A stretch of 64,000 nt of DNA from Pseudomonadota bacterium (GCA_018823285.1 JAHJIQ010000007.1:4536-68535), one strand, 5' to 3'; shown: positions 42,551 through 59,787, counted from the stretch's first letter. Notes: a model not told the origin generated them from the sequence alone. A program made the numbers and translations.

Positions 42551-43602
42551 GATGAAGTGCCTCCTGCGGGTTGATTATGTATTGCCGGACCAATGGGAAG
42601 AGAGATCGTGAAAGTCGAACCTTGTCCGGGTTGACTGTCAACACTGACCGATCCATTATGCTCCCTGGCGGTACGTTCCACGATAGGCAGGCCAAGACCG
42701 GGGCCGTTTGTTTTTGTTGTGTAAAAAGGTTTGAAGATGTTTTTCTGTTCTTCCTGGGAGATACCGGGGCCATGATCCGTAACTGAAATTCTTACCGTTT
42801 TCCCGTCGGTGGACGTGCCCACAAGAATTTCTGTATTTGCCGCAGAGGATTCCACGCTGTTCTCAAGGAGCTTGGTCAGCGCTTCACGCATTCTTGCGGT
42901 GTCGCAAGGGGTCAGTGGCAGGTGTTCCGCCAGCCTGAGCAGCACCGGTTTTTTCAGGTTGTCCACGGAATTTGAAAATTCATCAACCGCTGTACGGGTC
43001 ACGCTGTTGATGTCGCATGGTTCGAGTGCCAGCGGGGCCGGATTGGAAAAACTTAAGAATATCGAGGTCAGGGTGTTCAGCTTCTTGACCTCTTCTTCAA
43101 TAACGTTCAGGAATTCGGTGACGAGCTCCCCGTGGAAATTTTTTTTCAGATACGAGGCGGCGATGCCGATTGAATGCAGGGGGTTCCTTGTTTCATGGGC
43201 CACGGCGGCGATCATGTTGCCGAGTTCAGCGGTGCGAGCGTCTTTTGCCTGCTGCCGATCGTTTTTTTCCTGTTCCGAGAGATTGAATTTCAGGTCCTTG
43301 ACCATCTGGTTGAAGACCTCGACAAATTCACTGATTTCGTCCCCGCACGACTCCTTGTAGACCACACATTTGCGGCAATCTCCCAGCTTCTGGGCGAATT
43401 CCCCCTGAACAGCTCCGTGGCAGCTGGTTCCGGCGATGGACCAGCATCGGAGTCTGCCGTAAGCCGGGCAATCTTTTTTTTCACAGCCGAGTCGTTCCCA
43501 GCATTTGACGATCTGCGGATTTTCCTCTTCCACATCATAATTGCCGGACTGCAGGGCGATCATCTTTTCCTTCAAGGACTGGAGTTTTTTGATCTTGCTC
43601 AT
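42547..43602 (-). CDS. Soluble sensor histidine kinase with an N-terminal Cys-rich two-CW-type domain
   Basis: N-terminus KCWERLGCEKKDCPAYGRLRCWSIAGTSCHG...CRKCVVYKESC (two CW dipeptides, 9 Cys), a coiled coil, then HisKA (AAVAHETRNPL) and HATPase_c (GPGLGLPIV). No TM segment. Confidence 0.8.
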   Translation of the reverse strand: MSKIKKLQSLKEKMIALQSGNYDVEEENPQIVKCWERLGCEKKDCPAYGRLRCWSIAGTSCHGAVQGEFAQKLGDCRKCVVYKESCGDEISEFVEVFNQMVKDLKFNLSEQEKNDRQQAKDARTAELGNMIAAVAHETRNPLHSIGIAASYLKKNFHGELVTEFLNVIEEEVKKLNTLTSIFLSFSNPAPLALEPCDINSVTRTAVDEFSNSVDNLKKPVLLRLAEHLPLTPCDTARMREALTKLLENSVESSAANTEILVGTSTDGKTVRISVTDHGPGISQEEQKNIFKPFYTTKTNGPGLGLPIVERTAREHNGSVSVDSQPGQGSTFTISLPIGPAIHNQPAGGTSS

Positions 43603-44974: not shown

Positions 44975-46720
44975 TTATCCTCCTTGCAGGATGAGCGTGA
45001 ATTTGCTGCCTTGCCCTTCGGTGCTTTCCAGGACAAGATCGCCCCGGTGCTCCCTGGCGATCTTTTTGGAAATGGCCAGGCCCAGGCCGGTGCCCCTGGT
45101 CTTGGTGGTATAAAAAGGATTGAAGACATGTCTGATTTTGTCCGGGGCGATGCCCGATCCGTCATCTTCTACAACAAGATGGACTTTTCCCTGGACGGCA
45201 AGTGTCGAAATAGAGACCTTGCCATCCCGGTCGATGGCGTCAAAGGCATTGATCAGCAGATTGATCAGCACCTGCTTGATCTGGTTCTGGTCACAATGAA
45301 CGGGTGGAAGCGAGGAGTCGATATCGGAAACGAGAGTGATGCCATGGCTTCTGGCCTCTTCACCCAGCAGGGAAAGGGTGGTGCGGACAATCTCGCCCAG
45401 GTCGTTCGGGGCCAGCTCCTGGACCATGGGTTTGGCAAAACCGAGCAATGTCCCGGTCAGCTTGTTGATGCGTGAAACCTCATCGCTAATGACCCCGGTG
45501 AACTCTTCGATAAGGCTGCCGCTGTAGTTTTTCCGGATATAACCTGCCGCCCCGCCGATGGCGTTTAGCGGGTTTTTGATCTCATGGGCGAGGGTTGCCG
45601 CGAGCTCCCCGGTTGCGGCGAGCCGGCACAATCTTTCCTGCTCGTCGACGGCGTGGCCGAGTTTCATGACCATTTCATTGAAGGCGTTCGACAACTCGCC
45701 AATTTCATCGGTCCCGGAAACCGGGATGTTTCTGTTGAAACCTTCGTCGACCAGCCGGTCGACGGAATTTTTGAGAAGGAGGATCGGTCGGACAAGTCTG
45801 ATGATCAGCCCCAGGCCGAAAACAAGGGTGGCCGCAAAAGAGATCAGCATCAGGATGAAAACCAGCAGCCTCCGGCCTTCAAGGTCGAGGGGGCTTATGT
45901 TCTCGTAAAAAATTACCGTGCCGAAGAGAATCAGGGGGACGGCGGTCAGGAGACTGAAGGCGGTCAGGGCCCGGAAGAGAATGCTTGAGCCGAGAGTGGT
46001 GAAGGTCGTCCGGTTGATGCTGAAGAGGAGAATCATAAAGCCTACCGGCCGGAACAGATGCCCGTGCAGCCAGACGGCAGAGCCTATGGGGGCCGGGAAG
46101 AAAAGGAAGGTTGCAGAAATGCAGAGCAGGAGAAAACCGATTGCCGACCAGAGAATTTCTATTTTGCGGGTCCGGTAAAATGCGGCAAAGAGCAGCATGC
46201 AGACCAGCCCGCTTAAATAGGCGACACTGATCCAGACCAGCGGTCGGAACTGGCCGAAGATCGGGAATTTCTCGTAAATATCGGGAACCAGAAAGCCAAG
46301 CAGGGGCAGATAACAGAGCAGAAGGATCTTTTTCCGACCGGGATTTTCAGAAGAGATGGCCACGATAAAGGTCAGGAGGCCGAAACAATATCCCAGCAGG
46401 GTCTGGTACAGGAGGTTCAGGTTCAGGTGGTTCAGGTGGATAACCGCATGGAAGAAGCTGCTGATCCCTAAAATCAGGAAGGAGGCGGAGAAAAGCATCG
46501 CCCGGCTCTTGTGAACATGATCAAGGCCGGGGGTTCGGTGATGCATCAGGATAAATCTGGTGGCGATGATCAGACAGATTGAAGCGATAAGAAATTCCTC
46601 GCCCGTGTGATAATCGAGCAGGAATCCTTTATCGGTATAGTAGGAGGGCCAGTTCATCAAGAATTTGCTTTTCTCCTGATATTTTTTGCATGGACGGGAA
46701 ACCAAAAATGCACAATCCAT
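44975..46720 (-). CDS. Membrane sensor histidine kinase (multi-TM sensor, HAMP, HisKA, HATPase_c)
   Basis: About 8 TM helices, then HAMP-like, ATLAHEIKNPL (H-box) and GTGLGLAISKKIA (G2 box). An alternative start at 46657 (MNWPSYY) is possible. Confidence 0.85.
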   Translation of the reverse strand: MDCAFLVSRPCKKYQEKSKFLMNWPSYYTDKGFLLDYHTGEEFLIASICLIIATRFILMHHRTPGLDHVHKSRAMLFSASFLILGISSFFHAVIHLNHLNLNLLYQTLLGYCFGLLTFIVAISSENPGRKKILLLCYLPLLGFLVPDIYEKFPIFGQFRPLVWISVAYLSGLVCMLLFAAFYRTRKIEILWSAIGFLLLCISATFLFFPAPIGSAVWLHGHLFRPVGFMILLFSINRTTFTTLGSSILFRALTAFSLLTAVPLILFGTVIFYENISPLDLEGRRLLVFILMLISFAATLVFGLGLIIRLVRPILLLKNSVDRLVDEGFNRNIPVSGTDEIGELSNAFNEMVMKLGHAVDEQERLCRLAATGELAATLAHEIKNPLNAIGGAAGYIRKNYSGSLIEEFTGVISDEVSRINKLTGTLLGFAKPMVQELAPNDLGEIVRTTLSLLGEEARSHGITLVSDIDSSLPPVHCDQNQIKQVLINLLINAFDAIDRDGKVSISTLAVQGKVHLVVEDDGSGIAPDKIRHVFNPFYTTKTRGTGLGLAISKKIAREHRGDLVLESTEGQGSKFTLILQGG

Positions 46721-46981
46721 ACCACAATGTATGGAACAGTATTACAGCCCGGTTGTCAATTTTCAGATCGGTTGATGCTTCTTCTCCGAGCCATGACGTG
46801 TGGCATGTTGATGCCAGCATTCAGCGCTCAGGACACTGTTTCTGCCGACCTCGTCTGGGCCTTTTCGCACATCCAGGATTGTCTTGCTGTGCCGAATGGC
46901 ACAATACCGCCCTGGCAGAGATGTGGTGAGAGGCATGTTCTCTCCGCATGTGGAGCCGGTTGCGGGTCAGAAGATTCCTCT

Positions 46982-46997
46982 TGGCATTATCTTTGCA
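46982..46997 (+). promoter_or_regulatory. Sigma-54 (-24/-12) promoter upstream of the tusA-like/dsrE-like genes
   Basis: TGGCAT-TATCT-TTGCA has the exact GG-N10-GC spacing of the TGGCAC-N5-TTGCW consensus. It lies 84 nt upstream of ATG 47081. Confidence 0.7.
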
Positions 46998-47080
46998 AAA
47001 TTCACAGATCGGCAGGGGGGTTGATTTTAAACGAGCCTGTGAATAGATGCCGGGCGTTCGGCTTTCTGGAGAAACAGCGG

Positions 47081-47317
47081 ATGGGTGAGGCGAAAAAAAT
47101 TGACAGGGTGCTCGATCTCTCCGGAATGCTTGGTCCCAATCCGAGCCTGATCACCAGAAAGAGGCTTGGTGACCTGGTCCGGGGTGAAACTCTGGAGGTG
47201 ATATGCAGTGAGCGTTCCGTCCGGAAGGCGATTCTGGCTCTCTGCCGAAACAGTCTTTATGAAGTTATTGAGACCAGGGAGGAAAACGGGCTCTCAAGTT
47301 TTATAATCAGGAAATAA
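47081..47317 (+). CDS. TusA/SirA-fold protein lacking the conserved CP cysteine
   Basis: 78 aa. RVLDLSGMLGPNPSLITRKRL...GETLEVI...SSFIIRK matches the TusA pattern LDxxGLxCPxP, but Cys is replaced by Gly (codon GGT, not TGA). Confidence 0.65.
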   Translation: MGEAKKIDRVLDLSGMLGPNPSLITRKRLGDLVRGETLEVICSERSVRKAILALCRNSLYEVIETREENGLSSFIIRK

Positions 47318-47376
47318 TATGTGCCATCCTCCTTCATCAGGCCGGCCTGGTTTGGCGGCAGCAGGAAGGCCCTCGA

Positions 47377-47415
47377 CATGCCCGGCGGAAAGTCTTGGCC
47401 GCCGGGCATGTTTTC
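47377..47415 (+). terminator. Strong hairpin with a T-tract between the tusA-like and dsrE-like genes (terminator/attenuator candidate)
   Basis: Perfect 12-bp stem CATGCCCGGCGG / CCGCCGGGCATG, 10-nt loop, followed by TTTTCCC. Confidence 0.55.
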
Positions 47416-47466
47416 CCGGTTGGTGAAAACGGCTGCATGTATGGCGGATGGATTATGGAGGCGGTG

Positions 47467-47739
47467 ATGACCAAAAAAATTGCGGTGCTGGTCAGAGACA
47501 GGCAGGGTGAAGCCCTGAGAATGGCGGTCGGGATCATCCTGATGGATGACGAGATTGATGTCTATGTGCTTGACCGGAAGATTGATGAATCGGGAAACAA
47601 TGGGCTCTATCTGGAGACCATCAAAGACATGGAGATGAATGCGTATTCCAATGTGAAGGACAACGTGGGGCTTGCGTATCTTACCGATGAGGAGATCGGG
47701 ATCAGGCTCCCGGAGTATGACCACGTACTTGCCTATTGA
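47467..47739 (+). CDS. DsrE/DsrF/DsrH-fold-like small protein (no Cys)
   Basis: MTKKIAVLVRDRQGEALRMAVGIILMDDEIDVYVLD is a Rossmann-like beta-alpha start typical of the DsrE/F/H family. RBS ggagg. Confidence 0.45.
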   Translation: MTKKIAVLVRDRQGEALRMAVGIILMDDEIDVYVLDRKIDESGNNGLYLETIKDMEMNAYSNVKDNVGLAYLTDEEIGIRLPEYDHVLAY

Positions 47740-47796
47740 TTACAAACGGGGTGCCGGTTACGCGACTGGCCGATCATGAAAAAAGGAGACAGGGGT

Positions 47797-47964
47797 ATGA
47801 CCATTTTGTACCTGCTGAAGGGAAAACCGGATCCTACCTTGCAGAAAATTCTGACTGCACAGAAAAAACTCCACAAGATCGAAACCATAGATCTTGAGCA
47901 AAACAGGGAGTATGGCAGGATCGTCGCGGCAATTGCCGCCGCCGATCGGGTCGTTTCTTGGTAG
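47797..47964 (+). CDS. Small protein (55 aa), possibly DsrH/TusB-like
   Basis: MTILYLLKGKPD... with RBS aaggaga, between two DsrE-family-like genes. Confidence 0.35.
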   Translation: MTILYLLKGKPDPTLQKILTAQKKLHKIETIDLEQNREYGRIVAAIAAADRVVSW

Positions 47965-47999
47965 CCTGCAGCTGAGAATAATTATTTAGGGAGCAGGGT

Positions 48000-48302
48000 A
48001 TGAAACTCGGTATACTGGTGAATACGGACAAGTGCTTTCAGGCTCTTTCGGGAATCACCCGGGCCGCGAGCGACAAGGGGCACGAAGTGACCATCTTTGC
48101 CATGGACGAAGGGACAAGGCTTCTGGAAGATCCGGAATGCCTCTCTCTCTCGGGACTGGCCAGGGTGTCGATGAGCTACTGCGATCACAGCGCCATCGAG
48201 CTGGGTGTCAATAAAGAGGGGGTTCCCGAAGCGATTGAACGCAGCAGTCAGTACAATAACGCCGCAATGAACCATAATGCGGACAAGGTGATTGTTCTGT
48301 GA
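48000..48302 (+). CDS. DsrE/TusD-family-like sulfur-relay protein
   Basis: MKLGILVNTDK...VTIFAMDEGTRLL...VSMSYCDHSAIELG...NADKVIVL matches the family pattern, including the conserved Cys region. Confidence 0.55.
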   Translation: MKLGILVNTDKCFQALSGITRAASDKGHEVTIFAMDEGTRLLEDPECLSLSGLARVSMSYCDHSAIELGVNKEGVPEAIERSSQYNNAAMNHNADKVIVL

Positions 48303-48326
48303 TCCTGATGGGGGGATTTTCCTGGC

Positions 48327-49988
48327 GTGGGCAAGCTCAAGGTACTTGAAAGCGTCCTGCTTCTCTCAGTTGTCACGCTGCTCGTTTTTCCGATTCTTTA
48401 TATCTGTCGTTTTCTGGATACCAACACCCTGGTCAGCTGGCGCTGGGTCTTTGCCACGGTCCCGGCGTCCTGGGTCATGGTGTGGCTCCTGGCAGCCGTT
48501 GTGTGTTCCGTTCTTGTTTCATGGTGGGTTCCTCTGGAGAGGTACCCCGGTCCATTTCTGTTTTTCCTCGCCATTCCGGTGATCCTGCCCTTGTGGTCCG
48601 AACCCGAACTGTTGCTCGATTCCGGGCGCTATTTTCTCCAGGCCAGGCACCTGGCCGAGTATGGATTCTTATATTTTGTCCGGGAATGGGGCAGGGAGAT
48701 TCCCACCTGGACAGATCTTCCTTTGATCCCGATGCTGTACGGCTTGATTTTTAAAATGAGTGGTGAGTCAAGAATTGCCATCCAGTGCTTCACCACCCTT
48801 CTTTTCGCTCTGACCACGGTGCTTACGGCAAAAATCGGTGAAGAGCTTTGGGACCGGGAGACCGGTTTTTATGCGGGGATGATGCTTTTCGGCATGCCTT
48901 ATCTCATGACCCAGGTGGTGTTGATGCTGGTGGATGTTCCGGCAATGTTTTTCCTGGTCCTGGCCCTGCACCTCTTTCTGCTGGCGATTTCCAGGGGTGG
49001 CGGCTGGATGGCGATGTCGGTTTCGGCGATTGTTTTTGCGATGCTCGCCAAATATTCGCTGTGGCCGATGCTCTTGGTGCTGCCCCTTTCGGCCCTGTTC
49101 TGCAAGGGTCCGGATCGGCGAACAAGTATCTGCCGGGCCGGGGTGGTCCTGTTTGCCGCTGCGAGCGTAGCGGCCTTAATGATTGTCTTGAAATTCTCTC
49201 TTTTCTCCGGGCAGCTGGAGATTTTGCTGCAATATCAGAAGCCGGCCCTGAAGCTCTGGCGGGAGGGGTATTTCTCCACGTTCTTTTTCCAGATCAGTCC
49301 ATTGGTATCCATTCTTGCCCTCTGGGCGCTGTACCGGGCCTGGCGGACCGGCAACCGGCAGGTGCTGATCGCAACATTTTTTGCGGTCATGGTTTTCGGC
49401 CTGCAGATGAAGCGGATCCGCTACATTATCCCCCTGTTGCCTCTGCTGGCCCTCCTGGCTTCCTTTGGTTTGCAGGCGATCAGGGAGAAAATGGTCCGCC
49501 GCTTTGCCGCCCTTGTCATTGTCTCCTATTCGCTGGTGATTGCCTATACCGGTTACCTGCCGTTTTTTAAAACCACAAGCATGATGAACATTATGGAGGC
49601 AGGCCGTTTTCTCGATACACTGCCGGGAGATACCGTTGAGCTGCTGGCATTGCCCCAGAGGACCTCGGGTGGCAATACTGTTCTTGCCATTCCTCAGCTC
49701 GATCTCTTCACCGCTAAAAAGATCGTCAGTCGACAGGACTGGATGGGTGGAGAGGAAGGGTTGTGGTCTTCTTTTGCGCCGCTGCTCTTCTCGTGGCAGA
49801 TTGCCAGGCCTCCTTTCTACCGGCCCGAAGTCGGGGGCGCACCTCTTCCGCTGGTGGTCATCGCAGACACCACTCTGCCTGAAAACGTCGCGGCCGCTGC
49901 CGGTATCGGAGCAAAGATTTTGAAAAAAAAATTCGTAAGCGCGCCCGGTGTTTTCAGATTTCAGACCAATGTTTTTGTCTATGATTGA
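48327..49988 (+). CDS. GT39/ArnT-like (PMT_2) membrane glycosyltransferase
   Basis: 553 aa, at least 10 TM helices. The N-terminal loop with DSGRYF...EYGF is typical of the dolichyl/undecaprenyl-phosphate-sugar glycosyltransferase C fold. GTG start. Confidence 0.6.
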   Translation: MGKLKVLESVLLLSVVTLLVFPILYICRFLDTNTLVSWRWVFATVPASWVMVWLLAAVVCSVLVSWWVPLERYPGPFLFFLAIPVILPLWSEPELLLDSGRYFLQARHLAEYGFLYFVREWGREIPTWTDLPLIPMLYGLIFKMSGESRIAIQCFTTLLFALTTVLTAKIGEELWDRETGFYAGMMLFGMPYLMTQVVLMLVDVPAMFFLVLALHLFLLAISRGGGWMAMSVSAIVFAMLAKYSLWPMLLVLPLSALFCKGPDRRTSICRAGVVLFAAASVAALMIVLKFSLFSGQLEILLQYQKPALKLWREGYFSTFFFQISPLVSILALWALYRAWRTGNRQVLIATFFAVMVFGLQMKRIRYIIPLLPLLALLASFGLQAIREKMVRRFAALVIVSYSLVIAYTGYLPFFKTTSMMNIMEAGRFLDTLPGDTVELLALPQRTSGGNTVLAIPQLDLFTAKKIVSRQDWMGGEEGLWSSFAPLLFSWQIARPPFYRPEVGGAPLPLVVIADTTLPENVAAAAGIGAKILKKKFVSAPGVFRFQTNVFVYD

Positions 49989-50192
49989 TTTCGGGAATGA
50001 TCCCTTCTTTCAGCTGTTCTAATGCGGCCATTCAGCCGGATCGGCTGGCCCATTCGGGACAGCCGTCTGTTTCTGAAATACTCCCTGCAAAAAGCAGCCG
50101 GGGTTCTTCTGCCGGCACCGTTCCCTCTATCTTCCGATAAAAAGGGCTGATTCGTCGCCTGGGCGGGTGATCTCTCCGGAGAAAAAGTCCCG

Positions 50193-50208
50193 TGGCATGA
50201 ACATTGCT
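50193..50208 (+). promoter_or_regulatory. Sigma-54 (-24/-12) promoter upstream of the yeeE/yedE-like gene
   Basis: TGGCAT-GAACA-TTGCT with exact consensus spacing, 90 nt upstream of ATG 50298. Confidence 0.7.
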
Positions 50209-50297
50209 CAAGATCCATGATGCGAGGGCGGATGCCCGCTATTGGAATCAGCAAAATGAAAACCGGTGTTGATCCGCACATATCTTAGGAGGAAGGA

Positions 50298-51731
50298 ATG
50301 GAAATTATTATCCCAAGAAGGAACGTTGTCTGGGCCTACGTTATTGTCGGCTTCTTCAGCCTGATAAGCGTGGTGACCTTCGCAATCCACGAATATTACA
50401 TCTACCTCTCGGCCTACCTCTGGTTCGGATTTATCTACGGCATGTGCCTGCAGTACGGCAGGTTCTGCTTTGCCTCGGCCTTCAGGGACCTTTTTGCGGT
50501 GGGCGTTCCGCGAATGGTCGTCGGAATCATGATCGCGACCCTTCTCTTTGCCATCACCTCGGCCTTTGTTTCGGCCACCGGCTGGAGCACCTTCCATGCG
50601 GCCCCGGTCAGTTTTCACGCCACCATTGCCGGCCTGATTTTCGGGGTCGGGATGGTCTTCGCCGGCGGTTGCGCTTCCGGGTCGCTGTACAAGACCGGGG
50701 AGGGCAACGGGGTCTCGCTGCTGGTGATCCTCTCGATCAGTGTTACCCAGTCTCTCTTTGTCGACTGGGGCGGGATCCTCAACAGACTGGTCCCCCAGGC
50801 CTGGCATGAATCGGCCCTTAAAAAGGGGCTCCCCGATTCGATCAATGTCGGTGATGGGTTTATCGACCAGTATCTCGCCGGGTATGTCTGGGACCAGCCG
50901 GTCATGACCTATGCCCAGAGCCTCGGCATGAAAGACGACACCCTTTCCGGAGCGCTGCTGGGCAATGCCCTGGCCGGAGTTTTCGTTCCCGCCCTGATCA
51001 TCCTCTTGATCGTCTATTTTTTCTGGGTCAAGAAAAACTATGTCCGGAAGCTGCAGAAGGAGAAAGGCGGGAATATTACTCTCAAAGATCATCTGCACGG
51101 CTTCTGGGGCATGATCATGGCCTCCAAAAGGACCTCGATTGCAGGGCTGCTGCTGGGGATCGCCTGCGGTCTGCAGATGTTTGTCATCGAAGGCATGCGG
51201 ATGAAATTCGGGGTCAAAAATGCCGGCACCCTGCTGGTGAGGCTTGGCCATGACTACGGGATTTCGGCCAAAGGGACCGTGTTTGACCCCGGCTACTGGT
51301 ATGTGACCACCCAGGAAGCACAGTGGGTCGGGTGGATGCTGCAGAAGCTCGGGATGGAGAATATGGACAATATCTATTTTGGCTGGGTGAACGGCATTCC
51401 GAGCCCGGCCATCAACCCCGCCGACTGGATGTCGGTTGCCCTGATCGGCGGTGCTGCGGTCATGGCGCTCCTGCACGGAGAATTCAAGTTCAAGGCTCCG
51501 ACTTTAGAGCTTGCGGTCTGGGCCATTATCGGCGGCGCCCTGATGGGGATCGGTTCCAGGCTGGCCCTGGGGTGTAATGTCGGGGCGTTTTTTGTCCGGA
51601 CCGCCATGGGCGATATGTCCGGCTGGCTGTTCGGCCTCGGCATGATCGGCGGGGCCTATATCGGGGTCAAGTTTTTTAACTGGTACACGGAGCGGAAGAT
51701 GGCCGGCGAGATGGCCGGTTTCGATTTATAG
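50298..51731 (+). CDS. YeeE/YedE-family membrane transporter (thiosulfate/sulfur- or selenium-compound uptake family)
   Basis: Two halves with conserved Cys loops (FAGGCASGSLYK, LALGCNVGAFF). 477 aa. RBS aggagg. Confidence 0.8.
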   Translation: MEIIIPRRNVVWAYVIVGFFSLISVVTFAIHEYYIYLSAYLWFGFIYGMCLQYGRFCFASAFRDLFAVGVPRMVVGIMIATLLFAITSAFVSATGWSTFHAAPVSFHATIAGLIFGVGMVFAGGCASGSLYKTGEGNGVSLLVILSISVTQSLFVDWGGILNRLVPQAWHESALKKGLPDSINVGDGFIDQYLAGYVWDQPVMTYAQSLGMKDDTLSGALLGNALAGVFVPALIILLIVYFFWVKKNYVRKLQKEKGGNITLKDHLHGFWGMIMASKRTSIAGLLLGIACGLQMFVIEGMRMKFGVKNAGTLLVRLGHDYGISAKGTVFDPGYWYVTTQEAQWVGWMLQKLGMENMDNIYFGWVNGIPSPAINPADWMSVALIGGAAVMALLHGEFKFKAPTLELAVWAIIGGALMGIGSRLALGCNVGAFFVRTAMGDMSGWLFGLGMIGGAYIGVKFFNWYTERKMAGEMAGFDL

Positions 51732-51854
51732 CTTAAGTTGAACTGCTCGTTTGCTCATACCGATACGTGAGCTTGCGAGACATCGAGACTTCTATCCGAA
51801 GGGTGAATAACAATTTAGCATTTTGAAGAATAAGCTGAAAACGGAGGTACAACC

Positions 51855-52106
51855 ATGGCTATGACATTTGCAAAAAAAGAAGAAGGCGTCTACACCCTCG
51901 ATGTGACCGGGTATGTCTGCCCGCATCCCCAGATCTATACCAAGAAGGCCCTTGAAAAGATCCGGAGCGGCGAAATGCTGGAAGTGATTTTCGATAACCC
52001 CTCTTCATCAGAATCGGTTTCCGCCATGTGTGATAACAACGGCAACGATATCGTCGAGAAAAATTCGGATGGCGGCCGGTATGTATTCAAAATTGTCAAA
52101 GGCTGA
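51855..52106 (+). CDS. TusA/YeeD/YedF-type sulfurtransferase with an intact Cys-Pro motif
   Basis: LDVTGYVCPHPQIYTKKALEKIRSGEMLEVIFDN... is a canonical TusA-fold signature, directly downstream of the YeeE-like gene. Confidence 0.8.
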   Translation: MAMTFAKKEEGVYTLDVTGYVCPHPQIYTKKALEKIRSGEMLEVIFDNPSSSESVSAMCDNNGNDIVEKNSDGGRYVFKIVKG

Positions 52107-52155
52107 GAGCGCTGTTTTGTAGCTGCAGTAGAGAAAAAAAAGAGGAGGAGCACAC

Positions 52156-52341
52156 ATGAAACAGCATCTTATGATCATCATCGCCATAGTGGTCGGTTTC
52201 AGCACTTTTATGCTGGGCTACAGCCTGCCGCCGTTTCTGGAGGTTGGCTTTGGAGATGGTGCCGGTATCGAGGGCGGGGTTGCTCCCGATTCGGAACTGC
52301 TGAAGCAGTATGAAAATCTTTACAAGAGCGAAGAGGAATAA
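52156..52341 (+). CDS. Small single-TM protein, paralog A
   Basis: RBS aggagg. N-terminal TM (IIIAIVVGFSTFMLGY), Gly-rich linker, C-terminus LLKQYENLYKSEEE. Confidence 0.5.
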   Translation: MKQHLMIIIAIVVGFSTFMLGYSLPPFLEVGFGDGAGIEGGVAPDSELLKQYENLYKSEEE

Positions 52342-52352
52342 GGAGGAGCGGG

Positions 52353-52556
52353 ATGAAATCGGGCCAGTTTTTTTTGATCGTGACGATTATCGCCGGAGCC
52401 TGCTTTTTCGGAGGCTACAAGCTTTCTGCCAACACCGGAACCGAACCGGGCTATTTTGGCGCGGTTGAGGCTGCCGGATACGGTGGCGGTGGTGACAAGA
52501 TCGAAGGCGTTACTGATGAGATGAGCAAATATTACAAGTCACTGCAGGAAGAATAG
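52353..52556 (+). CDS. Small single-TM protein, paralog B
   Basis: RBS aaggagg. N-terminal TM (FFLIVTIIAGACFFGGY), Gly-rich linker, C-terminus MSKYYKSLQEE. Same architecture as the preceding gene. Confidence 0.5.
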   Translation: MKSGQFFLIVTIIAGACFFGGYKLSANTGTEPGYFGAVEAAGYGGGGDKIEGVTDEMSKYYKSLQEE

Positions 52557-52584
52557 ACCTTCCCCAATCAAATGGAGATACCCC

Positions 52585-53049
52585 GTGAAAAACATTTTAC
52601 TTGCGGTGGATGACACCAGGAGTTCCATCAGAACATGTGAAATATTGATCGATGTTCTGGGTGGTTGCCTGCCGGAGCATGTTGTCCTGCTATATGTAGA
52701 GAAAATTGAAGGCGGCTCAATAATGGATGATCTCCTGCTCAGCGATTCAGAGGTCAACACCTTGAGGAAATCTCTGCAGGGCACCGAGCACCAGGAAATG
52801 ATGGACAAAAAAGCCCGTAAAATTCTCGAGTATTACGCAAAGATGCTGGCCGGAAAAGGTATTTCGGCTGTGAAGAAAATTGTCCGGGCAGGACATCCGG
52901 CTGAGGAGATCATGGCGGCAGCCGAGGAGGAAAAGGTCGGCATGATTGTCATGGGCTCCCGCAGTCAGCGGCTGCACACGCTGTTCATGGGCAGCGTCAG
53001 CCGGGAAGTGGCAAACAATGCGAAAATCCCGGTTCTGTTGTTGCGATGA
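52585..53049 (+). CDS. Universal stress protein (UspA family)
   Basis: MKNILLAVDD...GMIVMGSRSQ...GSVSREVANNAKIPVLLL, with the typical USP ATP-binding G-x2-G-x9-GS motif. Confidence 0.85.
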   Translation: MKNILLAVDDTRSSIRTCEILIDVLGGCLPEHVVLLYVEKIEGGSIMDDLLLSDSEVNTLRKSLQGTEHQEMMDKKARKILEYYAKMLAGKGISAVKKIVRAGHPAEEIMAAAEEEKVGMIVMGSRSQRLHTLFMGSVSREVANNAKIPVLLLR

Positions 53050-54578
53050 GCATGCAGAGCGCGGCTTCCCGACAGCTCAGAGGGCCGCTGGGATCCTTGT
53101 CGGCAGGGATGGGCGTGGGCGGGGTTGAGGAAAACAAACTGCCATACGAACACTGCCGGCACCATGGTGCTGATAGCGGCAGTGTTATTCTGGGCGGTGG
53201 TCTGGCTGGACTTGCAGCAGGTCATAGATTAACGGATGCAGGGCACCCGGTTACGGTTATTGAAAAAGGTGGTGCGGTCGGCGGTCTGGCCAGGACCATC
53301 CGGCATGGCGGGTTCAGGTTTGATTTGGGTGGGCACCGTTTTCTCGCCGATAACAAACAGACCATGACCCTTGTTTCGGGGTTGCTTGGTAAAGAGCTGT
53401 TAACGGTGCCGCGGAGCAGCCGGATTTTTATGAACGGCAAATATGTCGATTATCCCTTGAATCCGGTCAATGCTCTTCTCGGTCTGGGGATTTCCACGAC
53501 CACCTCGATTATCTTTGATTACGCCGGAGAAAAAATTCGCCGGCTTATCTCGGCAGGGCCACCCTTGATTTCTCTGGAGGATTGGGTGGTGGCACATTTC
53601 GGCCGGATAATGTTTGAACTCTATTTCAAAGATTACAGTGAAAAGGTCTGGGGGCTTAACTGCAGCCGGATCAGTATGGAATGGGTTGCCAGGCGCATCG
53701 ACGGTCTGTCGCTGTGGAAGGCTGTCAGGCATGCGCTCTTCAGGCTGAAGAGCAACGGATACAAGACACTGACCGATCATTTTGTTTACCCACGGCTCGG
53801 CATCGGGGTGCTTTCGGACCGGTTGCAGGAGCGTATCGTTTGCAGCAATCAGGTAAGGGTCGGCTCCGAAGTCCGTGAAGTATATCGTACAGACCGGGAG
53901 ATCACCGGAATAGAGGTGCAGGATAGCGGGGGCATGTCACTGGTTCGCGGCAGCAATTATCTTTCCAGTATCCCGTTAACCGTGCTCGTCCGGAAGATGC
54001 GCCCCAAACCGCCGCCTGAAGTGCTGGCGGCGGTGGACCGGATCAGTTTCCGCTCCCTGGTTGTTGTCGCAGTCATGCTGCGCAGGAAGAGGGTGACGGA
54101 TCTGACCTGGCTCTATTTTCCCGGCAAGGAGATCCCGTTCGGCAGAATCCACGAACCGACCAACTGGAGTGCGGCAATGGCCCCGGCGGGGCAGACCCAT
54201 CTGGTGATTGAGTATTTCTGTGATCAGGGCGATCATGTCTGGAATGCATCGGATGAAAAGCTGGTTACTGAAACATCAGAGCAGTTGCAGCGACTGGGGT
54301 TCATCAACTCCCGGGAAGTGATTGACAGTCGTGTCCTGAAGGTTCCCCACGCCTACCCGGTGTTCAGCGTTGATTATCAGAAGCACCTGCGGGTGGTGAC
54401 CGACTGGCTGGAACGCTTTGAAAACCTGCACCTCATCGGCCGGAGCGGCCGGTACAGCTACCTGAACATGGACCATGCGATGGAAAGCGGCATCAAAGCG
54501 GCCGGGAAAGTCCTGCAACGCTCCGGAGCGCATTTGAGTATGCCGGAACGAATAGCCGCCTGTCCGTGTCGCGTATAA
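53046..54578 (+). CDS. FAD-dependent oxidoreductase (amine-oxidase/phytoene-desaturase-like fold)
   Basis: Dinucleotide-binding VILGGGLAGLAAG...VTVIEKGGAVGG. The true start may lie downstream of 53046. Confidence 0.7.
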   Translation: MSMQSAASRQLRGPLGSLSAGMGVGGVEENKLPYEHCRHHGADSGSVILGGGLAGLAAGHRLTDAGHPVTVIEKGGAVGGLARTIRHGGFRFDLGGHRFLADNKQTMTLVSGLLGKELLTVPRSSRIFMNGKYVDYPLNPVNALLGLGISTTTSIIFDYAGEKIRRLISAGPPLISLEDWVVAHFGRIMFELYFKDYSEKVWGLNCSRISMEWVARRIDGLSLWKAVRHALFRLKSNGYKTLTDHFVYPRLGIGVLSDRLQERIVCSNQVRVGSEVREVYRTDREITGIEVQDSGGMSLVRGSNYLSSIPLTVLVRKMRPKPPPEVLAAVDRISFRSLVVVAVMLRRKRVTDLTWLYFPGKEIPFGRIHEPTNWSAAMAPAGQTHLVIEYFCDQGDHVWNASDEKLVTETSEQLQRLGFINSREVIDSRVLKVPHAYPVFSVDYQKHLRVVTDWLERFENLHLIGRSGRYSYLNMDHAMESGIKAAGKVLQRSGAHLSMPERIAACPCRV

Positions 54579-54590
54579 TCGGGTGAGTCA

Positions 54591-56105
54591 ATGAAATGCT
54601 TGCTGATCATTCCTGCCTGGCAACCGGAAGAAATTTTTCCGACCAGAACCGCCGCATCCCAGATCAATTACTGGCAGCCTCTGGGGACGCTCTATGTTGC
54701 TTCTGCTTTGCAGCAGGCAGGCCATGAGGTGGCGTTTCTGAACGGGGCCTTTCTGACCCGTGCGGAAATCCTCAATGCGGTTGGTCTGGCTAGGCCGGAG
54801 TTTGTCGGACTCTACTCTACCGCTTTCGGCTGGCCGAAAGCGATGCTGGCAGCGCAGGAGATCAGGGAGATTCTGCCCGAGGTGTTTATCGCAGTGGGCG
54901 GACCGTATCCGGTTGCGGTCCGGGAAAAATGTCTGGAGGATTGCCCGGATGTCGATGCGGTGGTCACCGGTGAAGGTGAAGTGACGGTGGTCGAAATGGT
55001 CAACCGTTTTGCGGCGGGCAGGGATCTGGCCGAGGTCGCCGGTCTCGTCTGGCGGCTGAATGATTCAATAATCTGCAACGCTCCCCGGCCGCTCTGCACC
55101 AATCTTGACACTCTGGCTTTTCCCGCCCGGGAACTGCTTGGTGAAGCGGGCAGATATATTCCGCCACCCGCAACTTACAAGCGTAAACCGGTGGCGGTGG
55201 TCATGACTTCCAGGGGCTGTGATCACCATTGTATCTACTGCTTCCAGATGGACAGAAGGCGGAAGAGCGGGATCAGATATCGCAGTATCGACAACGTGAT
55301 GGCGGAGATCGAGCTGTGTCTCTCCCAGGGCTATCGGGAGATCAAGTTCATCGATGAAACCCTGGCCGGCGATTACGACCGGGCGATGCAACTGACCACC
55401 GAGATTCATAAACGGGGGCTTGATTTCAGCTGGTTTGCCTCGGCAAGGGTCGATCAGGTTGATAAACCCCTGCTCCGGGCCTTTAAAAAGGCGGGCTGCT
55501 GGGCGATCCTGCTGGGGGCGGAGAGCGGGGTCCAGAAGAACCTTGATACGATCAGAAAGGGGATCACCCTGGAGCAGATCCGCGGGGCGGTTGCGGCGGC
55601 CAGGGAGGCCGGGCTCAAGGTCTTTACCCCGTTTCTGTTCGGTCTGCCCGGCGAGACATTCGCCGAAGGGCTCAGGACCATCAAGTTCGCCTGTGATCTC
55701 AATCCCGATGTGGCGAATTTCCATTGCCTGACACCATTTCCGGGCACCGAACTCCACGACCGTCTTGAGAAATACGGAACGGTTTCCGGGAACCTCGGCG
55801 ATTATACCTATCAGGGCGCTGCGTTTACCCCGTTTACTATGGGCAGAGGCGATATCACCAGATTGCGGCGGATCGCCTTCAAATCTTTCTATTCCCGGCC
55901 GCGCTTTCTCCTCCGCCGTTTTATCGGGATCAGAAGCGTGAACGACCTGCGGGCCGCTTTCACCGGAATCCGGAGTCTGTTCTGGATCTGGCTCTCTGAG
56001 GGAGTGTTTCAGCGAAGAGGGGTTGCCGGGGAAAAGAAACCGTCATCGGCAACTATCACAACCGGAGATATTCCTTCAGCAGGGCGGGGTATTGTCCAGG
56101 GTTGA
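54591..56105 (+). CDS. B12-binding-domain radical SAM enzyme
   Basis: N-terminal cobalamin-binding-like domain, then a radical SAM CxxxCxxC motif (SRGCDHHCIYCF). Confidence 0.8.
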   Translation: MKCLLIIPAWQPEEIFPTRTAASQINYWQPLGTLYVASALQQAGHEVAFLNGAFLTRAEILNAVGLARPEFVGLYSTAFGWPKAMLAAQEIREILPEVFIAVGGPYPVAVREKCLEDCPDVDAVVTGEGEVTVVEMVNRFAAGRDLAEVAGLVWRLNDSIICNAPRPLCTNLDTLAFPARELLGEAGRYIPPPATYKRKPVAVVMTSRGCDHHCIYCFQMDRRRKSGIRYRSIDNVMAEIELCLSQGYREIKFIDETLAGDYDRAMQLTTEIHKRGLDFSWFASARVDQVDKPLLRAFKKAGCWAILLGAESGVQKNLDTIRKGITLEQIRGAVAAAREAGLKVFTPFLFGLPGETFAEGLRTIKFACDLNPDVANFHCLTPFPGTELHDRLEKYGTVSGNLGDYTYQGAAFTPFTMGRGDITRLRRIAFKSFYSRPRFLLRRFIGIRSVNDLRAAFTGIRSLFWIWLSEGVFQRRGVAGEKKPSSATITTGDIPSAGRGIVQG

Positions 56106-57132
56106 AGAGGATGTTCATCATCATGTTGCATTCGTGGGTGCAGCAGCAACCCCGTTGCCGGATGGCGGCAAGGGTGTCAGTGCTTCTCCGGTCTTCGAGA
56201 ATCCTCATGAGATCATAGCCGTCGTCTCTGACATTGCCGAGTTTATCGGCAAATGATTCACACGGGTACACGTCGCCTGTTTCCGTTACAACCAGACTTA
56301 ATTTTCCGGCAAGGCAGGGGAGCTGCGCTTTATTCTCGGTCGCGGTTTTATGGATCAGCCTGCGCTGGATAATGTCCTGGGCCGCCTTCAAGCGACCGCC
56401 CCTGAAGCGGTATCCACCATCCTGCGAATTTTTCATGTTGGTTGCGAGAAGTTCCACGGCGTTTTTGTACTTGTCCGGATCGACTGTTTTCAGAGAGCTT
56501 TCCGCCACCTCGCCTCTGATCAGGGAAATAGTGTGGACCCTGATCTGCTTAAGGTTCTGAACCAGCCGGATCGTTTCCTCTATCCGGTCCTGGTTTGTCG
56601 CGCAGAACACCGTGTTGATCCCCAGCTCGAAATGGGCATATTGACTTAAAAGCGGTGCGAGAGACTCATAACAGGACAGCACCTTTTTATAGGCCCCCGC
56701 GACACCACGTAACGCATCATGGATTTCTTCCGGCCCGTCCAGCGAGAGTTTGACCGTGACCACACTGTCCGGGCATCTCTTGAGGATAGCTTCCGTGTCG
56801 TGGTAGATCTTTTCCGGCAACAGACCGTTGGTCGGCAGCAGGATAATCGCGGGTTTGTTCCGGCGGTAGAAAAGTTCCGTTATTGCAACAAGCTCGTCGC
56901 GCAGAAATATTTCACCGCCTGAAAATGCGAGCCAGAGCAGAGTGCCGAGGGACGAAGAGATCTGCTCGATTTCCGGCAGGGAAAGCTCTCTGCCGGAGCT
57001 GATGTGGTCCCGTGAGAGATAAAAGCAGAAAGGGCAACGGGCGTTGCAGCGGCGGGTCAGAAAAAGAGTGAGATGGACTGGTTTTCTCTTCAGGAAAATA
57101 GAATCGATATGTCTGAAAGGGGAATAGGGCAT
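56056..57132 (-). CDS. Radical SAM protein with a SPASM/twitch-like Cys-rich C-terminus
   Basis: TRRCNARCPFCF (CxxxCxxC) and a C-terminal CLAGK...CESF...GCCCTHEC. The 3' end overlaps the convergent B12-rSAM gene by 50 bp. Confidence 0.75.
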   Translation of the reverse strand: MPYSPFRHIDSIFLKRKPVHLTLFLTRRCNARCPFCFYLSRDHISSGRELSLPEIEQISSSLGTLLWLAFSGGEIFLRDELVAITELFYRRNKPAIILLPTNGLLPEKIYHDTEAILKRCPDSVVTVKLSLDGPEEIHDALRGVAGAYKKVLSCYESLAPLLSQYAHFELGINTVFCATNQDRIEETIRLVQNLKQIRVHTISLIRGEVAESSLKTVDPDKYKNAVELLATNMKNSQDGGYRFRGGRLKAAQDIIQRRLIHKTATENKAQLPCLAGKLSLVVTETGDVYPCESFADKLGNVRDDGYDLMRILEDRRSTDTLAAIRQRGCCCTHECNMMMNILFNPGQYPALLKEYLRL

Positions 57133-57138
57133 GTTCGT

Positions 57139-58161
57139 TCACGAAGAGGTCTGCCCGCGGAAGGCGATGCCGGTGAGGGCGCCCGCCCCCACGGCCAGCG
57201 GATAGAGGAGGGTGAAATAAGATGCGGCACCAAGGGCCAGCTTCATTCCGCCGGTGGCATGAAAAAGTTCAAGCATTCCCTGGCAGACCAGCAGGTTGAT
57301 AAAGAGCGGGACCAGAAGGGCTGCCGGGGGAATTGCGTCGGGCATGAGCAACCAGCCGACGGCGAGAAGGGCGAAGACGTGGAAGAGAATGACGGAGATC
57401 TTCAGTTCGAATGAAGCGGTGCCGGAATCGGTCAGCAGATCTTTGTGCAGGAGTGAATATCTGGTCCAGAACTTGGCCTTCCGGTAACCGTTGGCCATGG
57501 AGCTCGCCAGGGAAAACCCGAAGAAATGGCGGACCAGAATTTCCGGACGCATCCGTAATCGGCAGCCCTGTTGTTTGAGTCGGTGGCTGAATTCCACATC
57601 TTCGAGAATGGGCAGGAAATCCTCTCGAAACCCGCCTGAGTTCCGGAACGTCGAGGCGTCAAGGGCCATGGCGTGGGTTGCGATATAATCCGGATTTTCT
57701 GGATTCTTCAGTTCGGAATAATGGATGAACACCGACTGGAACAGGCTGAAGAAACCGGGGTCATGCGGTCTGCAGGTATAAGTGCCGCCGATGATGGTGT
57801 GAGGTTCCGCAAGGAGAACCGCCTGCTCCGCCAGGGTCAGGGTTTCGGGCAGGACCAGGCAGTCGCTATCGGTGAAGAAGAGGGTCCGACCGCGGCTGTT
57901 CCGGGCGCCCAGGTTTCTGGCCGCCGCGGCACCGCCATGCGCGTCCATTCTGATCAGACGGCAGGGGTATTCCTTGATTATGGCGACGGAGTTGTCGGAG
58001 GAGCAGTCATCGACCACGATGATCTCATAAGAGTCATGGTGTGAAGCGAGGAGGGCCTCCAGGCAGAGAGCGATGGTCTCGGCGCCATTGTGGTTGGGAA
58101 CAATCACTGAGACCCGGCATTCCCCGGCGATTTCTTTTTTTATGTGAACTGGATCCGTCAT
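57139..58161 (-). CDS. GT2-family glycosyltransferase with C-terminal TM helices
   Basis: VSVIVPNHNGAETI...IIVVDDCSSDNS...FTDSDC (DxD region). Hydrophobic C-terminal third. Confidence 0.8.
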   Translation of the reverse strand: MTDPVHIKKEIAGECRVSVIVPNHNGAETIALCLEALLASHHDSYEIIVVDDCSSDNSVAIIKEYPCRLIRMDAHGGAAAARNLGARNSRGRTLFFTDSDCLVLPETLTLAEQAVLLAEPHTIIGGTYTCRPHDPGFFSLFQSVFIHYSELKNPENPDYIATHAMALDASTFRNSGGFREDFLPILEDVEFSHRLKQQGCRLRMRPEILVRHFFGFSLASSMANGYRKAKFWTRYSLLHKDLLTDSGTASFELKISVILFHVFALLAVGWLLMPDAIPPAALLVPLFINLLVCQGMLELFHATGGMKLALGAASYFTLLYPLAVGAGALTGIAFRGQTSS

Positions 58162-58295
58162 TTTTCTAGCGGTGCCCTGCTCTCCGTTCTATCGTTCTGG
58201 CCGGTTCCGGCCATCTCTTTTTCTCATGTTGTCCGATTTGGGACAATCCTTCTCACTAAAATGCCTGTAAGGCTGTAATTCCACGAAATCAAGAG

Positions 58296-58311
58296 TGGTA
58301 TGCATATTGCT
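58296..58311 (+). promoter_or_regulatory. Sigma-54 (-24/-12) promoter upstream of the rhodanese gene
   Basis: TGGTAT-GCATA-TTGCT with exact GG-N10-GC spacing, 95 nt upstream of ATG 58406. Confidence 0.6.
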
Positions 58312-58405
58312 ACATTCAAGTTGCGTACCTGAAATCCCGGAAGATCTGGAAATGATGAAAAACAGATCCATATCATCTTTAGGGCAACCCAATGGAGGAA
58401 AGTTT

Positions 58406-59443
58406 ATGAAATTGAAATTGAAAGTGTTGTTAACAGTCACGGCGTTTGTGATTACTTGTGCTGGAACCGCTATGGCAGCCCAGTGGGCCAACCCGGAACT
58501 TCTGGTTGATGCTGCGACTGTAAAGGAAAATATCGACAAGCCGGACTGGGTGGTGGTCGATACCCGCGAGCTTAAAGATTATGTACAGGGCCACATCCCC
58601 GGGGCGATCAGTCTCGGCAAGCCCGGCAAAAGCGCTTTTCGTGATCCGACGGCCAGGGTGTTTCAGGATGTCGGCAAGTATGAAAGCATGCTGGGTAAAG
58701 CGGGTATCGGCAACGATACCCATGTGGTTTTCTATCATGGTGATCTGAAGACCCTGAATGACGCCACGGTTGGTTTCTGGGTCATGGAATATCTCGGCCA
58801 TGATAAAGTCCATGTGCTTGATGGCGGTCTCGAGGCATGGCGGAAGGCGGGGAACAGGCTTGACAAGGAGCCGACCATCAAAGCGGCCACAACCTTCAAG
58901 GCCAATGTCGTTCCAAGCCGCTACGCATCAACCGCTGAAATAGTCGCAATTGCCAATGGCCAGACCAAGGGGGTCCAGCTGATCGATTCACGGACGGAAA
59001 AGGAGTATGACGGCAGTGATATGCGCGCGTTGAACGGCGGCCATATCCCGGGTGCGGTGAGTATTTCCCATCTGACCACCCTGGTCAAGGTGAAAGACAC
59101 AAAGACCGGCAAGATGAAAGAGACCGATGTCTACACCGCTGACTCAACGGGAAAACTCTTTGACTCTTTCGACAAAAACAAGCGAACCATCGCCTATTGT
59201 CAGACCGGAACCCGTTCCACCCTCACCTATCTGCAGCTCCGGCTGATGGGATTCAAAGAACCCGCCAATTGGGACGACTCGTGGCGGGTGTACGGTTCCG
59301 ACTTGCATGCTGCGAACCTTATCGAGGCACCTAATGGCGTCCAGTGGTACAATTTCGACAAGGTCAACAAATCCATAAAGGATCTGGAGAAAAAGGTAGA
59401 GGCATTGGAGGCACAGGTAAAGAAATTGTCGGGAGGAAAATAA
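58406..59443 (+). CDS. Exported tandem-rhodanese sulfurtransferase with a C-terminal coiled-coil
   Basis: Signal peptide MKLKLKVLLTVTAFVITCAGTAMA/AQ, two rhodanese domains, an active-site loop CQTGTRST, and a C-terminus KSIKDLEKKVEALEAQVKKL. RBS ggagga. The tracked start 58295 is upstream of the RBS. Confidence 0.8.
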   Translation: MKLKLKVLLTVTAFVITCAGTAMAAQWANPELLVDAATVKENIDKPDWVVVDTRELKDYVQGHIPGAISLGKPGKSAFRDPTARVFQDVGKYESMLGKAGIGNDTHVVFYHGDLKTLNDATVGFWVMEYLGHDKVHVLDGGLEAWRKAGNRLDKEPTIKAATTFKANVVPSRYASTAEIVAIANGQTKGVQLIDSRTEKEYDGSDMRALNGGHIPGAVSISHLTTLVKVKDTKTGKMKETDVYTADSTGKLFDSFDKNKRTIAYCQTGTRSTLTYLQLRLMGFKEPANWDDSWRVYGSDLHAANLIEAPNGVQWYNFDKVNKSIKDLEKKVEALEAQVKKLSGGK

Positions 59444-59787
59444 GGCAGTAAATCAATAAGGGTGAATTTGATTATGGTATCCCTGCTTTTTTTGCTTTTC
59501 CCTAACAGTTATTTTGCAAAAATTAAATTGTTTACTAGCCACACTCTGTGGTAGACGTATTCTGGTAATCATTGATTCTTGAGCATCAATGACTGCATGG
59601 GAACGTGTTAGCGGCACACTGGTATTCTTGCCTGGGCTATTTGAGCCGGAAAGAATTTGAAAGAATTTGAAAGAATATGGCTATGAAAAAGCAGCTGAGG
59701 AGGAGAAGGTTAATTTTTACCGGATTGCGTTGAATGAGTGGGCAATTGTATGCAGTTAACAACTAACATAAAAAGTGGAGAAATACC

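Follow-up and report, generated by a model that had tools for sequence, protein, structure and literature searches.

What controls the sulfur-trafficking genes that lie next to an NtrC-type activator on a 64,000-nucleotide stretch of DNA from a Pseudomonadota bacterium (GCA_018823285.1 JAHJIQ010000007.1:4536-68535; this whole stretch is called the window below)? An earlier interpretation of this DNA, made without database searches and referred to here as the sequence-only reading, had singled out three near-consensus sigma-54 promoters in front of these genes and had proposed a single regulon that couples chalcogen uptake and relay with a neighbouring selenoprotein operon. Our analysis makes it very probable that the region holds a dedicated sigma-54 regulon for an extended version of a known sulfur-trafficking gene cluster, run by the neighbouring NtrC-type regulator. 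The known cluster, which comprises yeeE, tusA, one gene resembling dsrE and a pair of small genes, is called YTD and has lately been reread as yeeE-tusA-dsrEFH type II (PMC9751629, PMC13293266, PMC13047784).

The three -24/-12 elements were found exactly where the sequence-only reading had placed them, all of them intergenic and on the + strand: P1 at 46982–46997 (TGGCATTATCTTTGCA), P2 at 50193–50208 (TGGCATGAACATTGCT) and P3 at 58296–58311 (TGGTATGCATATTGCT). The GG-N10-GC spacing is exact at each, and the distance from the end of the motif to the start codon, claimed to be 84–95 nucleotides (nt), measures 84 nt for P1 (ATG 47081), 90 nt for P2 (ATG 50298) and 95 nt for P3 (ATG 58406). Compared with TGGCAC-N5-TTGCW, P1 and P2 each have one mismatch and P3 has two. 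The pattern TGGYAY-N5-TTGCW matches at these three sites and nowhere else on either strand of the window; shuffled sequences give an expectation of 0.27 matches, and a count of three was reached in 0 of 100 shuffles, for a pattern that was taken from the sites themselves and is thus post hoc. A weight-matrix scan, which had been proposed as a check, placed P1 (18.0 bits) and P2 (16.9 bits) first and second in the window, to be compared with a mean of 15.4 bits and a maximum of 17.95 bits for the top match in simulated sequences; the same scan did not lift P3 above chance. No sigma-70-type promoter was seen upstream of P1, P2 or P3 when the three intergenic regions were scanned, and the lone sigma-70-like match in them is weak and lies downstream of P3 (58347–58376). 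An Rfam scan of the whole window returned one tRNA only, leaving the 5' untranslated regions without riboswitch or leader. Two further sigma-54-like matches, at 14358 and 53968, were discarded, being inside genes or facing none.

A search for shared motifs further upstream, also suggested earlier, revealed that two 16-bp palindromes stand in tandem ahead of each of the three promoters. The palindrome reads TGKNC-N6-GNMCA, with cTGTCC-N6-GGACAg as the ideal form, and has eight matches in the window, six of which make up the three pairs, with starts 31–32 bp apart. We refer to the pairs as UAS1, UAS2 and UAS3, and score them with a matrix trained on palindromes from outside the window. UAS1 consists of TGGGCCTTTTCGCACA (46856–46871, 14.9 bits) and TGTGCCGAATGGCACA (46888–46903, 21.1 bits), the latter stopping 79 nt short of P1's GG and being identical in two of the related loci introduced below, L001 and L002. 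In UAS2, TGTTCTAATGCGGCCA (50015–50030, 14.2 bits) is followed by the best-scoring palindrome of the window, TGGCCCATTCGGGACA (50046–50061, 24.3 bits), which ends 132 nt before the GG of P2. UAS3 is formed by TGGCCGGTTCCGGCCA (58198–58213, 16.1 bits) and TGTCCGATTTGGGACA (58230–58245, 22.3 bits), with 51 nt between the end of the latter and the GG of P3. The stronger palindrome of each pair is thus the promoter-proximal one, and the next best site in the window after these six (14.2–24.3 bits) scores 10.7 bits. From their sequence and placement, we read the palindrome pairs as putative binding sites of the activator. The palindrome at 58198, which a simple scan also calls terminator-like, was dropped as a terminator since it is half of a conserved pair, and a perfect 16-bp palindrome between UAS1 and the first kinase gene (TGGCATGTTGATGCCA, 46801–46816) was dropped, as neither L001 nor L002 conserves it.

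To place these motifs in a wider context, we searched with YeeE, keeping one genome per species, and obtained 80 related loci (L001–L080; YeeE 69–91% identical) from Desulfobulbales/Desulfobacterales, Nitrospirota/Thermodesulfovibrionia, one Rokubacteria metagenome-assembled genome, and Gamma-, Alpha- and Betaproteobacteria. Nearly all of the genes described below are syntenic in these loci. In each locus, 350 nt upstream of every orthologue were scanned for sigma-54 sites with a cut-off of 12 bits. A site at or above this cut-off, usually of 15–20 bits, precedes yeeE in 51 of the 80 loci. Sites were also found before tusA1 (6 of 7 loci), orfB (9/40) and the rhodanese gene (10/48), in the last case only where the rhodanese gene is a separate unit beside a divergent GT2 glycosyltransferase gene and never where it directly follows usp. 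The internal genes that served as controls had none: usp 0/48, the oxidoreductase 0/46, the B12 radical SAM gene 0/48 and GT2 0/35.

The individual promoters are conserved as well. P1 recurs before tusA1 or orfB in eleven loci (L001, L002, L010, L014, L027, L003, L004, L009, L022, L033, L034). The element of P3 is found as near-identical TGGTAYRYATNTTGCT before the rhodanese gene in eight related loci and in a TGGCAC version in a ninth, with the palindrome pair upstream in all nine. Its unusual TGGTAT and its spacer (TGGTATGCATATTGCT, or a form ending in GCATCTTGCT) recur in both Desulfobulbales and Nitrospirota; the loci that share P3 together with the spacer are L002, L007, L008, L013, L029, L035 and L075, and the TGGCAC version is that of L022. 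Since site and spacer are conserved across related loci, we take P3 to be real despite its chance-level score. The spacer letters GCATA/GCATC, kept along with the -24/-12 motif in the distant lineages of L002, L008, L029, L035 and L075, go beyond what sigma-54 recognition needs. When the intergenic region between the GT39 gene and yeeE was aligned for the window and eleven loci, only four blocks were conserved: the two palindromes (including the weaker, distal one of UAS2), the -24/-12 element and the ribosome-binding site. Within the 1.23 Mb of the 80 loci there are 53 tandem palindrome pairs, 56 with the three of the window, where by our own estimate from the window's background rate about 0.05 would be expected by chance in the loci. 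All 56 lie beside yeeE, tusA1/orfB, the rhodanese gene, GT39, the first kinase gene or yeiH, nearly always upstream of a sigma-54 motif.

The activator gene (43634–44968, - strand) encodes an NtrC-family response regulator with a receiver domain (E = 9e-25), a sigma-54 AAA+ domain (Sigma54_activat, E = 2.5e-69) and a C-terminal HTH_8 helix-turn-helix (E = 5.7e-13). As the sequence-only reading had it, this is the sole sigma-54 AAA+ protein of the window. Its gene sits between those of two histidine kinases. Walker A reads GESGTGKE, and the sigma-54 contact loop, GAFTGA in its usual form, reads ELFGYEKGAFSGA, that is, the Thr-to-Ser variant GAFSGA, which we assume to be functional. The protein scores below the curated NCBIfam cut-offs for the equivalogs AtoC (431.7 vs 714), NtrC (415.5 vs 558.6) and ZraR (409.8 vs 760). 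Its helix-turn-helix, SWNQSxAAxxLGI(S/T)RKQLRTKMKN, is nearly invariant among orthologues (54–90% identity) and different in co-resident paralogues (39–42%), and a near-invariant recognition region fits an invariant palindrome.

Promoter, palindromes and activator also share a phylogenetic distribution. Sigma-54 sites stand before yeeE in 48 of the 51 loci from Desulfobacterota, Nitrospirota and Rokubacteria, as against 1 of 26 from Proteobacteria and other groups. For Desulfobacterota, the promoter was found in 18 of 19 loci, at least one palindrome in 18 of 19 and an activator orthologue within the examined stretch in 10; for Nitrospirota the corresponding numbers are 29/31, 30/31 and 17, and the single Rokubacteria locus has all three. 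None of the 26 loci from Proteobacteria and other groups has a palindrome or the activator. Fisher's exact test of promoter against activator gives p = 3e-8, with kinship of the loci ignored. Among the best 120 homologues of the regulator (at least 70% identity), we identified no cultured carrier. The proteobacterial loci (within L036–L080) keep the structural cluster without sigma-54 promoters, palindromes or activator, which suggests horizontal spread of the cluster with regulatory rewiring. Likewise, the high identity of YeeE across phyla (69–91%) suggests that the whole cluster may have been transferred horizontally.

Which genes would this system serve? P1 is predicted to drive operon 1 (47081–49988, +), made up of tusA1 (47081–47317), three dsrEFH type II-like genes (47467–47739, 47776–47964 and 48000–48302) and a PMT_2/GT39 glycosyltransferase gene (48327–49988). 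The predicted target of P2 is operon 2 (50298–56105, +): yeeE (50298–51731), tusA2 (51855–52106), smp1 (52156–52341), smp2 (52353–52556), usp (52585–53049), a FAD oxidoreductase gene (53046–54578) and a B12 radical SAM gene (54591–56105). As the gaps are short and no sigma-54 site lies inside the operon, a single P2 transcript may run from yeeE through the B12 radical SAM gene. The small genes smp1 and smp2, which fill an apparent 479-nt gap between tusA2 and usp and encode proteins of 61 and 67 amino acids with one N-terminal membrane helix each, had not been called; their conservation in at least 60 loci, at 40–78% identity, leads us to take them for real genes. Two small open reading frames (ORFs) are syntenic in at least 40 loci and complete the YTD gene content of yeeE/yedE-like, tusA, dsrE-like and two small genes. 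P3 is predicted to drive operon 3 (58406–61539, +), with the gene for an exported double rhodanese (58406–59443; signal peptide, active site CQTGTR) and probably the gene for a YeiH-family putative sulfate exporter (59788–61539), which follows the rhodanese gene in L002 and L013 too. Between operons 2 and 3 lies a unit on the - strand (56056–58161) with the GT2 glycosyltransferase gene (58161–57139), which starts 37 nt from UAS3, and a radical SAM/SPASM gene (57132–56056); these two genes are convergent with operon 2 and divergent from P3.

Pfam matches upheld the gene assignments of the sequence-only reading (TusA-like, DsrE-like and GT39; YeeE with TusA; an exported rhodanese), adding that the rhodanese is double and has a signal peptide. 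YeeE matches Sulf_transp at E = 2.7e-38 and the two TusA proteins match their family at E = 2.5e-21 and 4.6e-11; the DsrE-like protein reaches 21.5 bits, just under the cut-off of 22.7. The DsrE-like and orfB proteins gave no match by sequence to solved structures, those of DsrEFH included, and the papers cited above report the same of the type II proteins. TusA1 lacks the catalytic CPxP cysteine (it reads GMLGPNP), as does its counterpart in L014, while L001, L002 and L010 retain LLCPxP; TusA2 has VCPHP. The syntenic block from tusA1 to yeiH (47081–61539) is far larger than YTD and is kept in more than 60 loci, including those of Gamma-, Alpha- and Betaproteobacteria. We found no literature that links YTD genes with radical SAM or glycosyltransferase genes.

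The two kinases flanking the activator differ in their sensory parts. HK1 (44975–46657, -) is a membrane histidine kinase with a sensor of nine predicted transmembrane helices and no periplasmic domain (AlphaFold2 model, pLDDT 83.7), followed by HAMP, HisKA and HATPase_c; its family is small and carries no annotation. HK2 (42547–43602, -) is a histidine kinase of the soluble kind and carries at its N-terminus a Cys-rich two-CW domain (residues 33–84) that matches NF045718 at 35.5 bits (cut-off 35). In 14 of 15 HK2 orthologues from the loci the motif CWERLxCxxxxCPxYGxLRCWxxAGTxC is near-invariant, and we found no paper on the two-CW domain. Thirteen loci have HK1 with the activator, ten have the activator with HK2, and five, besides the window, have all three, with palindromes alike in all. 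Because each kinase thus occurs alone with the activator in other lineages that have the same palindromes, both appear to be genuine inputs.

The kinase and activator genes may themselves belong to the regulon. A candidate weak fourth sigma-54 promoter, P0 (GTGGTATGGATTGTGCA, 46709–46725, -; 10.7 bits), stands before the kinase-activator-kinase(-selenoprotein) operon, and its GG-N10-GC recurs in L001, L002 and L010, some 50 nt upstream of the conserved HK1 start ATGAACTGG at 46657. The longest ORF would begin at 46720, a start that falls within the P0 motif and is probably wrong. P0 is preceded by TTGACA-N17-TTCCAT, conserved in the window, L001, L002 and L014. Since other lineages have strong sigma-54 promoters before HK1 (L009, L017, L018, L023, L026, L028), autoregulation from the same palindrome pair by way of P0 is plausible but weak.

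Taken together, a mechanism can be proposed in which HK1 in the membrane and the soluble, Cys-rich HK2 would phosphorylate one and the same NtrC-family regulator, possibly in response to a sulfur species in a reduced or intermediate state, for instance thiosulfate, polysulfide or S0. The phosphorylated regulator would bind the tandem palindromes as dimers and then assemble into the active ring, so that the pairs, some 50–130 nt upstream of the -24/-12 elements, would serve as enhancers. DNA looping and ATP hydrolysis by the regulator would then open sigma-54 RNA polymerase at P1, P2 and P3, giving expression of tusA1, dsrEFH(II) and GT39 from P1, of yeeE to the B12 radical SAM gene from P2, and of the periplasmic rhodanese, perhaps with yeiH, from P3. 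P0 may provide autoregulation and carry the appended selenoprotein genes along. The motifs with their conservation, their joint occurrence with the regulator gene and the protein domains are observed, whereas rpoN in this genome, the start sites, the binding of the palindromes by the regulator, the phosphotransfer and the cue are inferred.

Several observations weigh against this reading. The proteins of the window and of the related loci include no RpoN domain, so that the genome's rpoN is an assumption; no IHF site was found between palindromes and promoters within one mismatch of WATCAANNNNTTR; and a fold search with the HK1 sensor gave no significant match. The loci are nearly all metagenome-assembled genomes, and their number overstates their independence because the whole cluster appears to have been transferred horizontally. 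P0 is weak, the sigma-54 weight matrix is approximate, having been built from the published consensus, and P3, sixth in the window at 13.6 bits, is by its score alone at chance level. The last point bears on whether all the sites, or P3 at any rate, arose by chance and lack promoter function: simulations give about 1.75 matches of at least 13.84 bits, the score of the window's third-best match, and the consensus with two mismatches allowed is met at the random rate (37 matches in the window, 36 expected). Yet each of the three lies between genes, points in the right direction and has a palindrome pair upstream, and they are conserved at orthologous positions where the flanks are not, with zero matches before the control genes in 35–48 loci each, so chance is an extremely improbable explanation. 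A different doubt concerns the protein that acts at the palindromes. Crp/Fnr-type sites, too, are built as 5-N6-5 palindromes with TGT...ACA ends, and the window encodes one Crp-family protein (28893–29558). Four loci that extend 7 kb or more upstream have the promoter and no activator gene in the examined stretch, and some loci have a second activator paralogue (39–42% identity). The promoters could therefore be real and the palindromes bound by another factor, for example of the Crp/Fnr type, or the promoters could be fired by an activator encoded at another place, with the adjacent two-component system controlling something else. We consider this quite unlikely: activator, palindromes and promoter co-occur, one palindrome pair sits in an intergenic region shared with the regulator operon, the recognition helix is near-invariant in orthologues and different in paralogues, the palindromes are paired in tandem between -80 and -200 relative to the start site, as those of NtrC and NifA are, and there is no Crp-family gene in synteny with the cluster.

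Selenium, rather than sulfur, could also be the element at issue, a possibility contained in the chalcogen regulon of the sequence-only reading; YeeE/YedE and TusA/YedF would then deliver selenium to the neighbouring selenoproteins. YeeE indeed has the selenium protein YedE/FdhT as its top NCBIfam match, and TusA1 also matches YedF, both far under the curated cut-offs. Moreover, HK2 is followed, through a translationally coupled GTGA stop/start overlap (42550–42547), by three ORFs with in-frame TGA codons at cysteine-type positions and then by DedA (40861–42550, -). The three encode a thioredoxin-like protein (WUKKC), a small membrane protein (FCU) and an ArsM-like methyltransferase (CU and SQU), with a hairpin 14–21 nt past each in-frame TGA. 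When these hairpins were checked as selenocysteine insertion sequences, however, their energies were no better than those of shuffled controls, and the selenoprotein genes are confined to the window and, in part, to L002, its closest relative, as opposed to about 50 loci for the regulon. The targets match YTD/dsrEFH type II, in which persulfide was shown in vitro to pass from TusA by way of DsrEFH-II to DsrC (PMC13293266), and a dsrMKJOP-like operon lies in the same window. A selenium-responsive regulon is thus unlikely in our view, and nothing we found points to selenium over sulfur. What is strongly supported in the earlier proposal is one regulon, with three promoters served by the adjacent activator and a distribution over some 50 loci in three phyla; the coupling to selenoproteins, which depends on local co-transcription through the GTGA overlap and on the weak candidate P0, is by the distribution of the genes best regarded as a local addition and not as a feature of the system.

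The sigma-54 regulon proposed here for the sulfur cluster has a textbook enhancer-dependent architecture. It shares with NtrB/NtrC-glnAp2 and with NifA the REC, AAA+ and HTH_8 domains and the tandem enhancers about 80–200 bp upstream of GG-N10-GC; the NifA upstream activator site is TGT-N10-ACA, and the palindrome described here has the same outline. It differs from both in that the targets are genes of sulfur relay and not of nitrogen, in its two unrelated kinases, in the motif TGTCC-N6-GGACA and in GAFSGA instead of GAFTGA. In function, the nearest analogues are TspS/TspR of Acidithiobacillus and FisR, and the system described here belongs to neither. TspS/TspR is likewise a sigma-54 two-component system beside the inorganic-sulfur energy genes that it controls. 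TspS has a periplasmic sCache domain, unlike HK1, and TspS/TspR targets sox or tetH in another phylum; the window has no sox genes. FisR of Cupriavidus and Acinetobacter, a divergently encoded sigma-54 activator of sulfide oxidation genes that drives pdo-sqr-tauE (PMC7315123), resembles our system in the sigma-54-dependent activation of sulfur-handling genes by a divergently encoded activator. FisR is, however, a one-component regulator with its own sensory domain, whereas the regulator in the window has a receiver domain, two kinases and other targets, and the yeeE-yedE-pdo2 operon of A. baumannii is under the BigR repressor and not under FisR (PMC7315123).

By gene content, the targets match YTD of Desulfobulbales and Nitrospirota, with its YeeE/YedE-like transporter, TusA, DsrE-like protein and two small proteins; here the genes are split over two operons and extended by GT39, usp, the FAD oxidoreductase, the B12 radical SAM, radical SAM/SPASM, GT2, rhodanese and yeiH genes. 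None of the words "sigma", "two-component" and "promoter" turned up where we searched the three YTD papers (PMC9751629, PMC13293266, PMC13047784) for them, and tusA, yeeE and rhodanese go unmentioned in a survey of sigma-54 from 2025 and in the paper on the sigma-54 regulome of D. vulgaris. We found no literature linking sigma-54 with tusA, yeeE and dsrE in these phyla, and the regulon itself is in no paper that we found. The role of YTD/dsrEFH type II is disputed, the cluster being taken either as a marker of sulfur disproportionation or as what enables organisms with reductive-type Dsr to oxidise sulfur (PMC13293266, PMC13047784, PMC9751629). In published proteomics of Desulfolithobacter dissulfuricans, YTD proteins were more abundant during thiosulfate disproportionation, and a periplasmic rhodanese was detected only under that condition (PMC9751629, PMC13047784). 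These data are consistent with co-induction, on the assumption that the regulator is present there.

If the regulon is as proposed, the signal that activates the kinases would tell which sulfur species the YTD pathway handles. With the 16-bp motif and a -24/-12 scan, the regulon can be charted in any genome of Desulfobacterota or Nitrospirota; in the window, this model adds genes for the periplasmic rhodanese, the YeiH-type exporter, glycosyltransferase and radical SAM proteins to the five known ones. That the same structural cluster is found in Proteobacteria without this control would mean that a module shared widely, and probably spread by horizontal transfer, has been rewired in its regulation. 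A more far-reaching idea, which we put forward only tentatively and regard as doubtful, is that shared control marks out some 17 genes as one functional unit, far beyond the five genes of YTD, that combines import, relay, rhodanese, the membrane-linked glycosyltransferases GT39 and GT2, B12 radical SAM, radical SAM/SPASM, FAD oxidoreductase and two tiny membrane proteins and is switched on by two previously uncharacterised sensor types, the nine-helix membrane domain and the two-CW cysteine domain. If true, zero-valent sulfur would be handled by way of a glycan- or lipid-linked step that has gone unrecognised.

Lastly, the window contains some other features. An intergenic sigma-54-like sequence, TTGGCTCGATTTGTGCT (28561–28577, +; 13.8 bits), faces the Crp-family gene at 28893 from a distance of 316 nt and is probably a chance match, as palindrome pair and activator gene are not near. 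The host is a sulfate-reducer-type bacterium, and our analysis assigned the window to contig JAHJDD010000024.1 of the metagenome-assembled genome GCA_018812685.1. The dsrMKJOP-like operon (9074–14204, +) has matches to Nitrate_red_gam, Fer4 and NrfD, and adjoining it is a gene (14330–16672, +) for a 780-amino-acid fusion of a PALP (CysK-like) domain and cysteinyl-tRNA synthetase.

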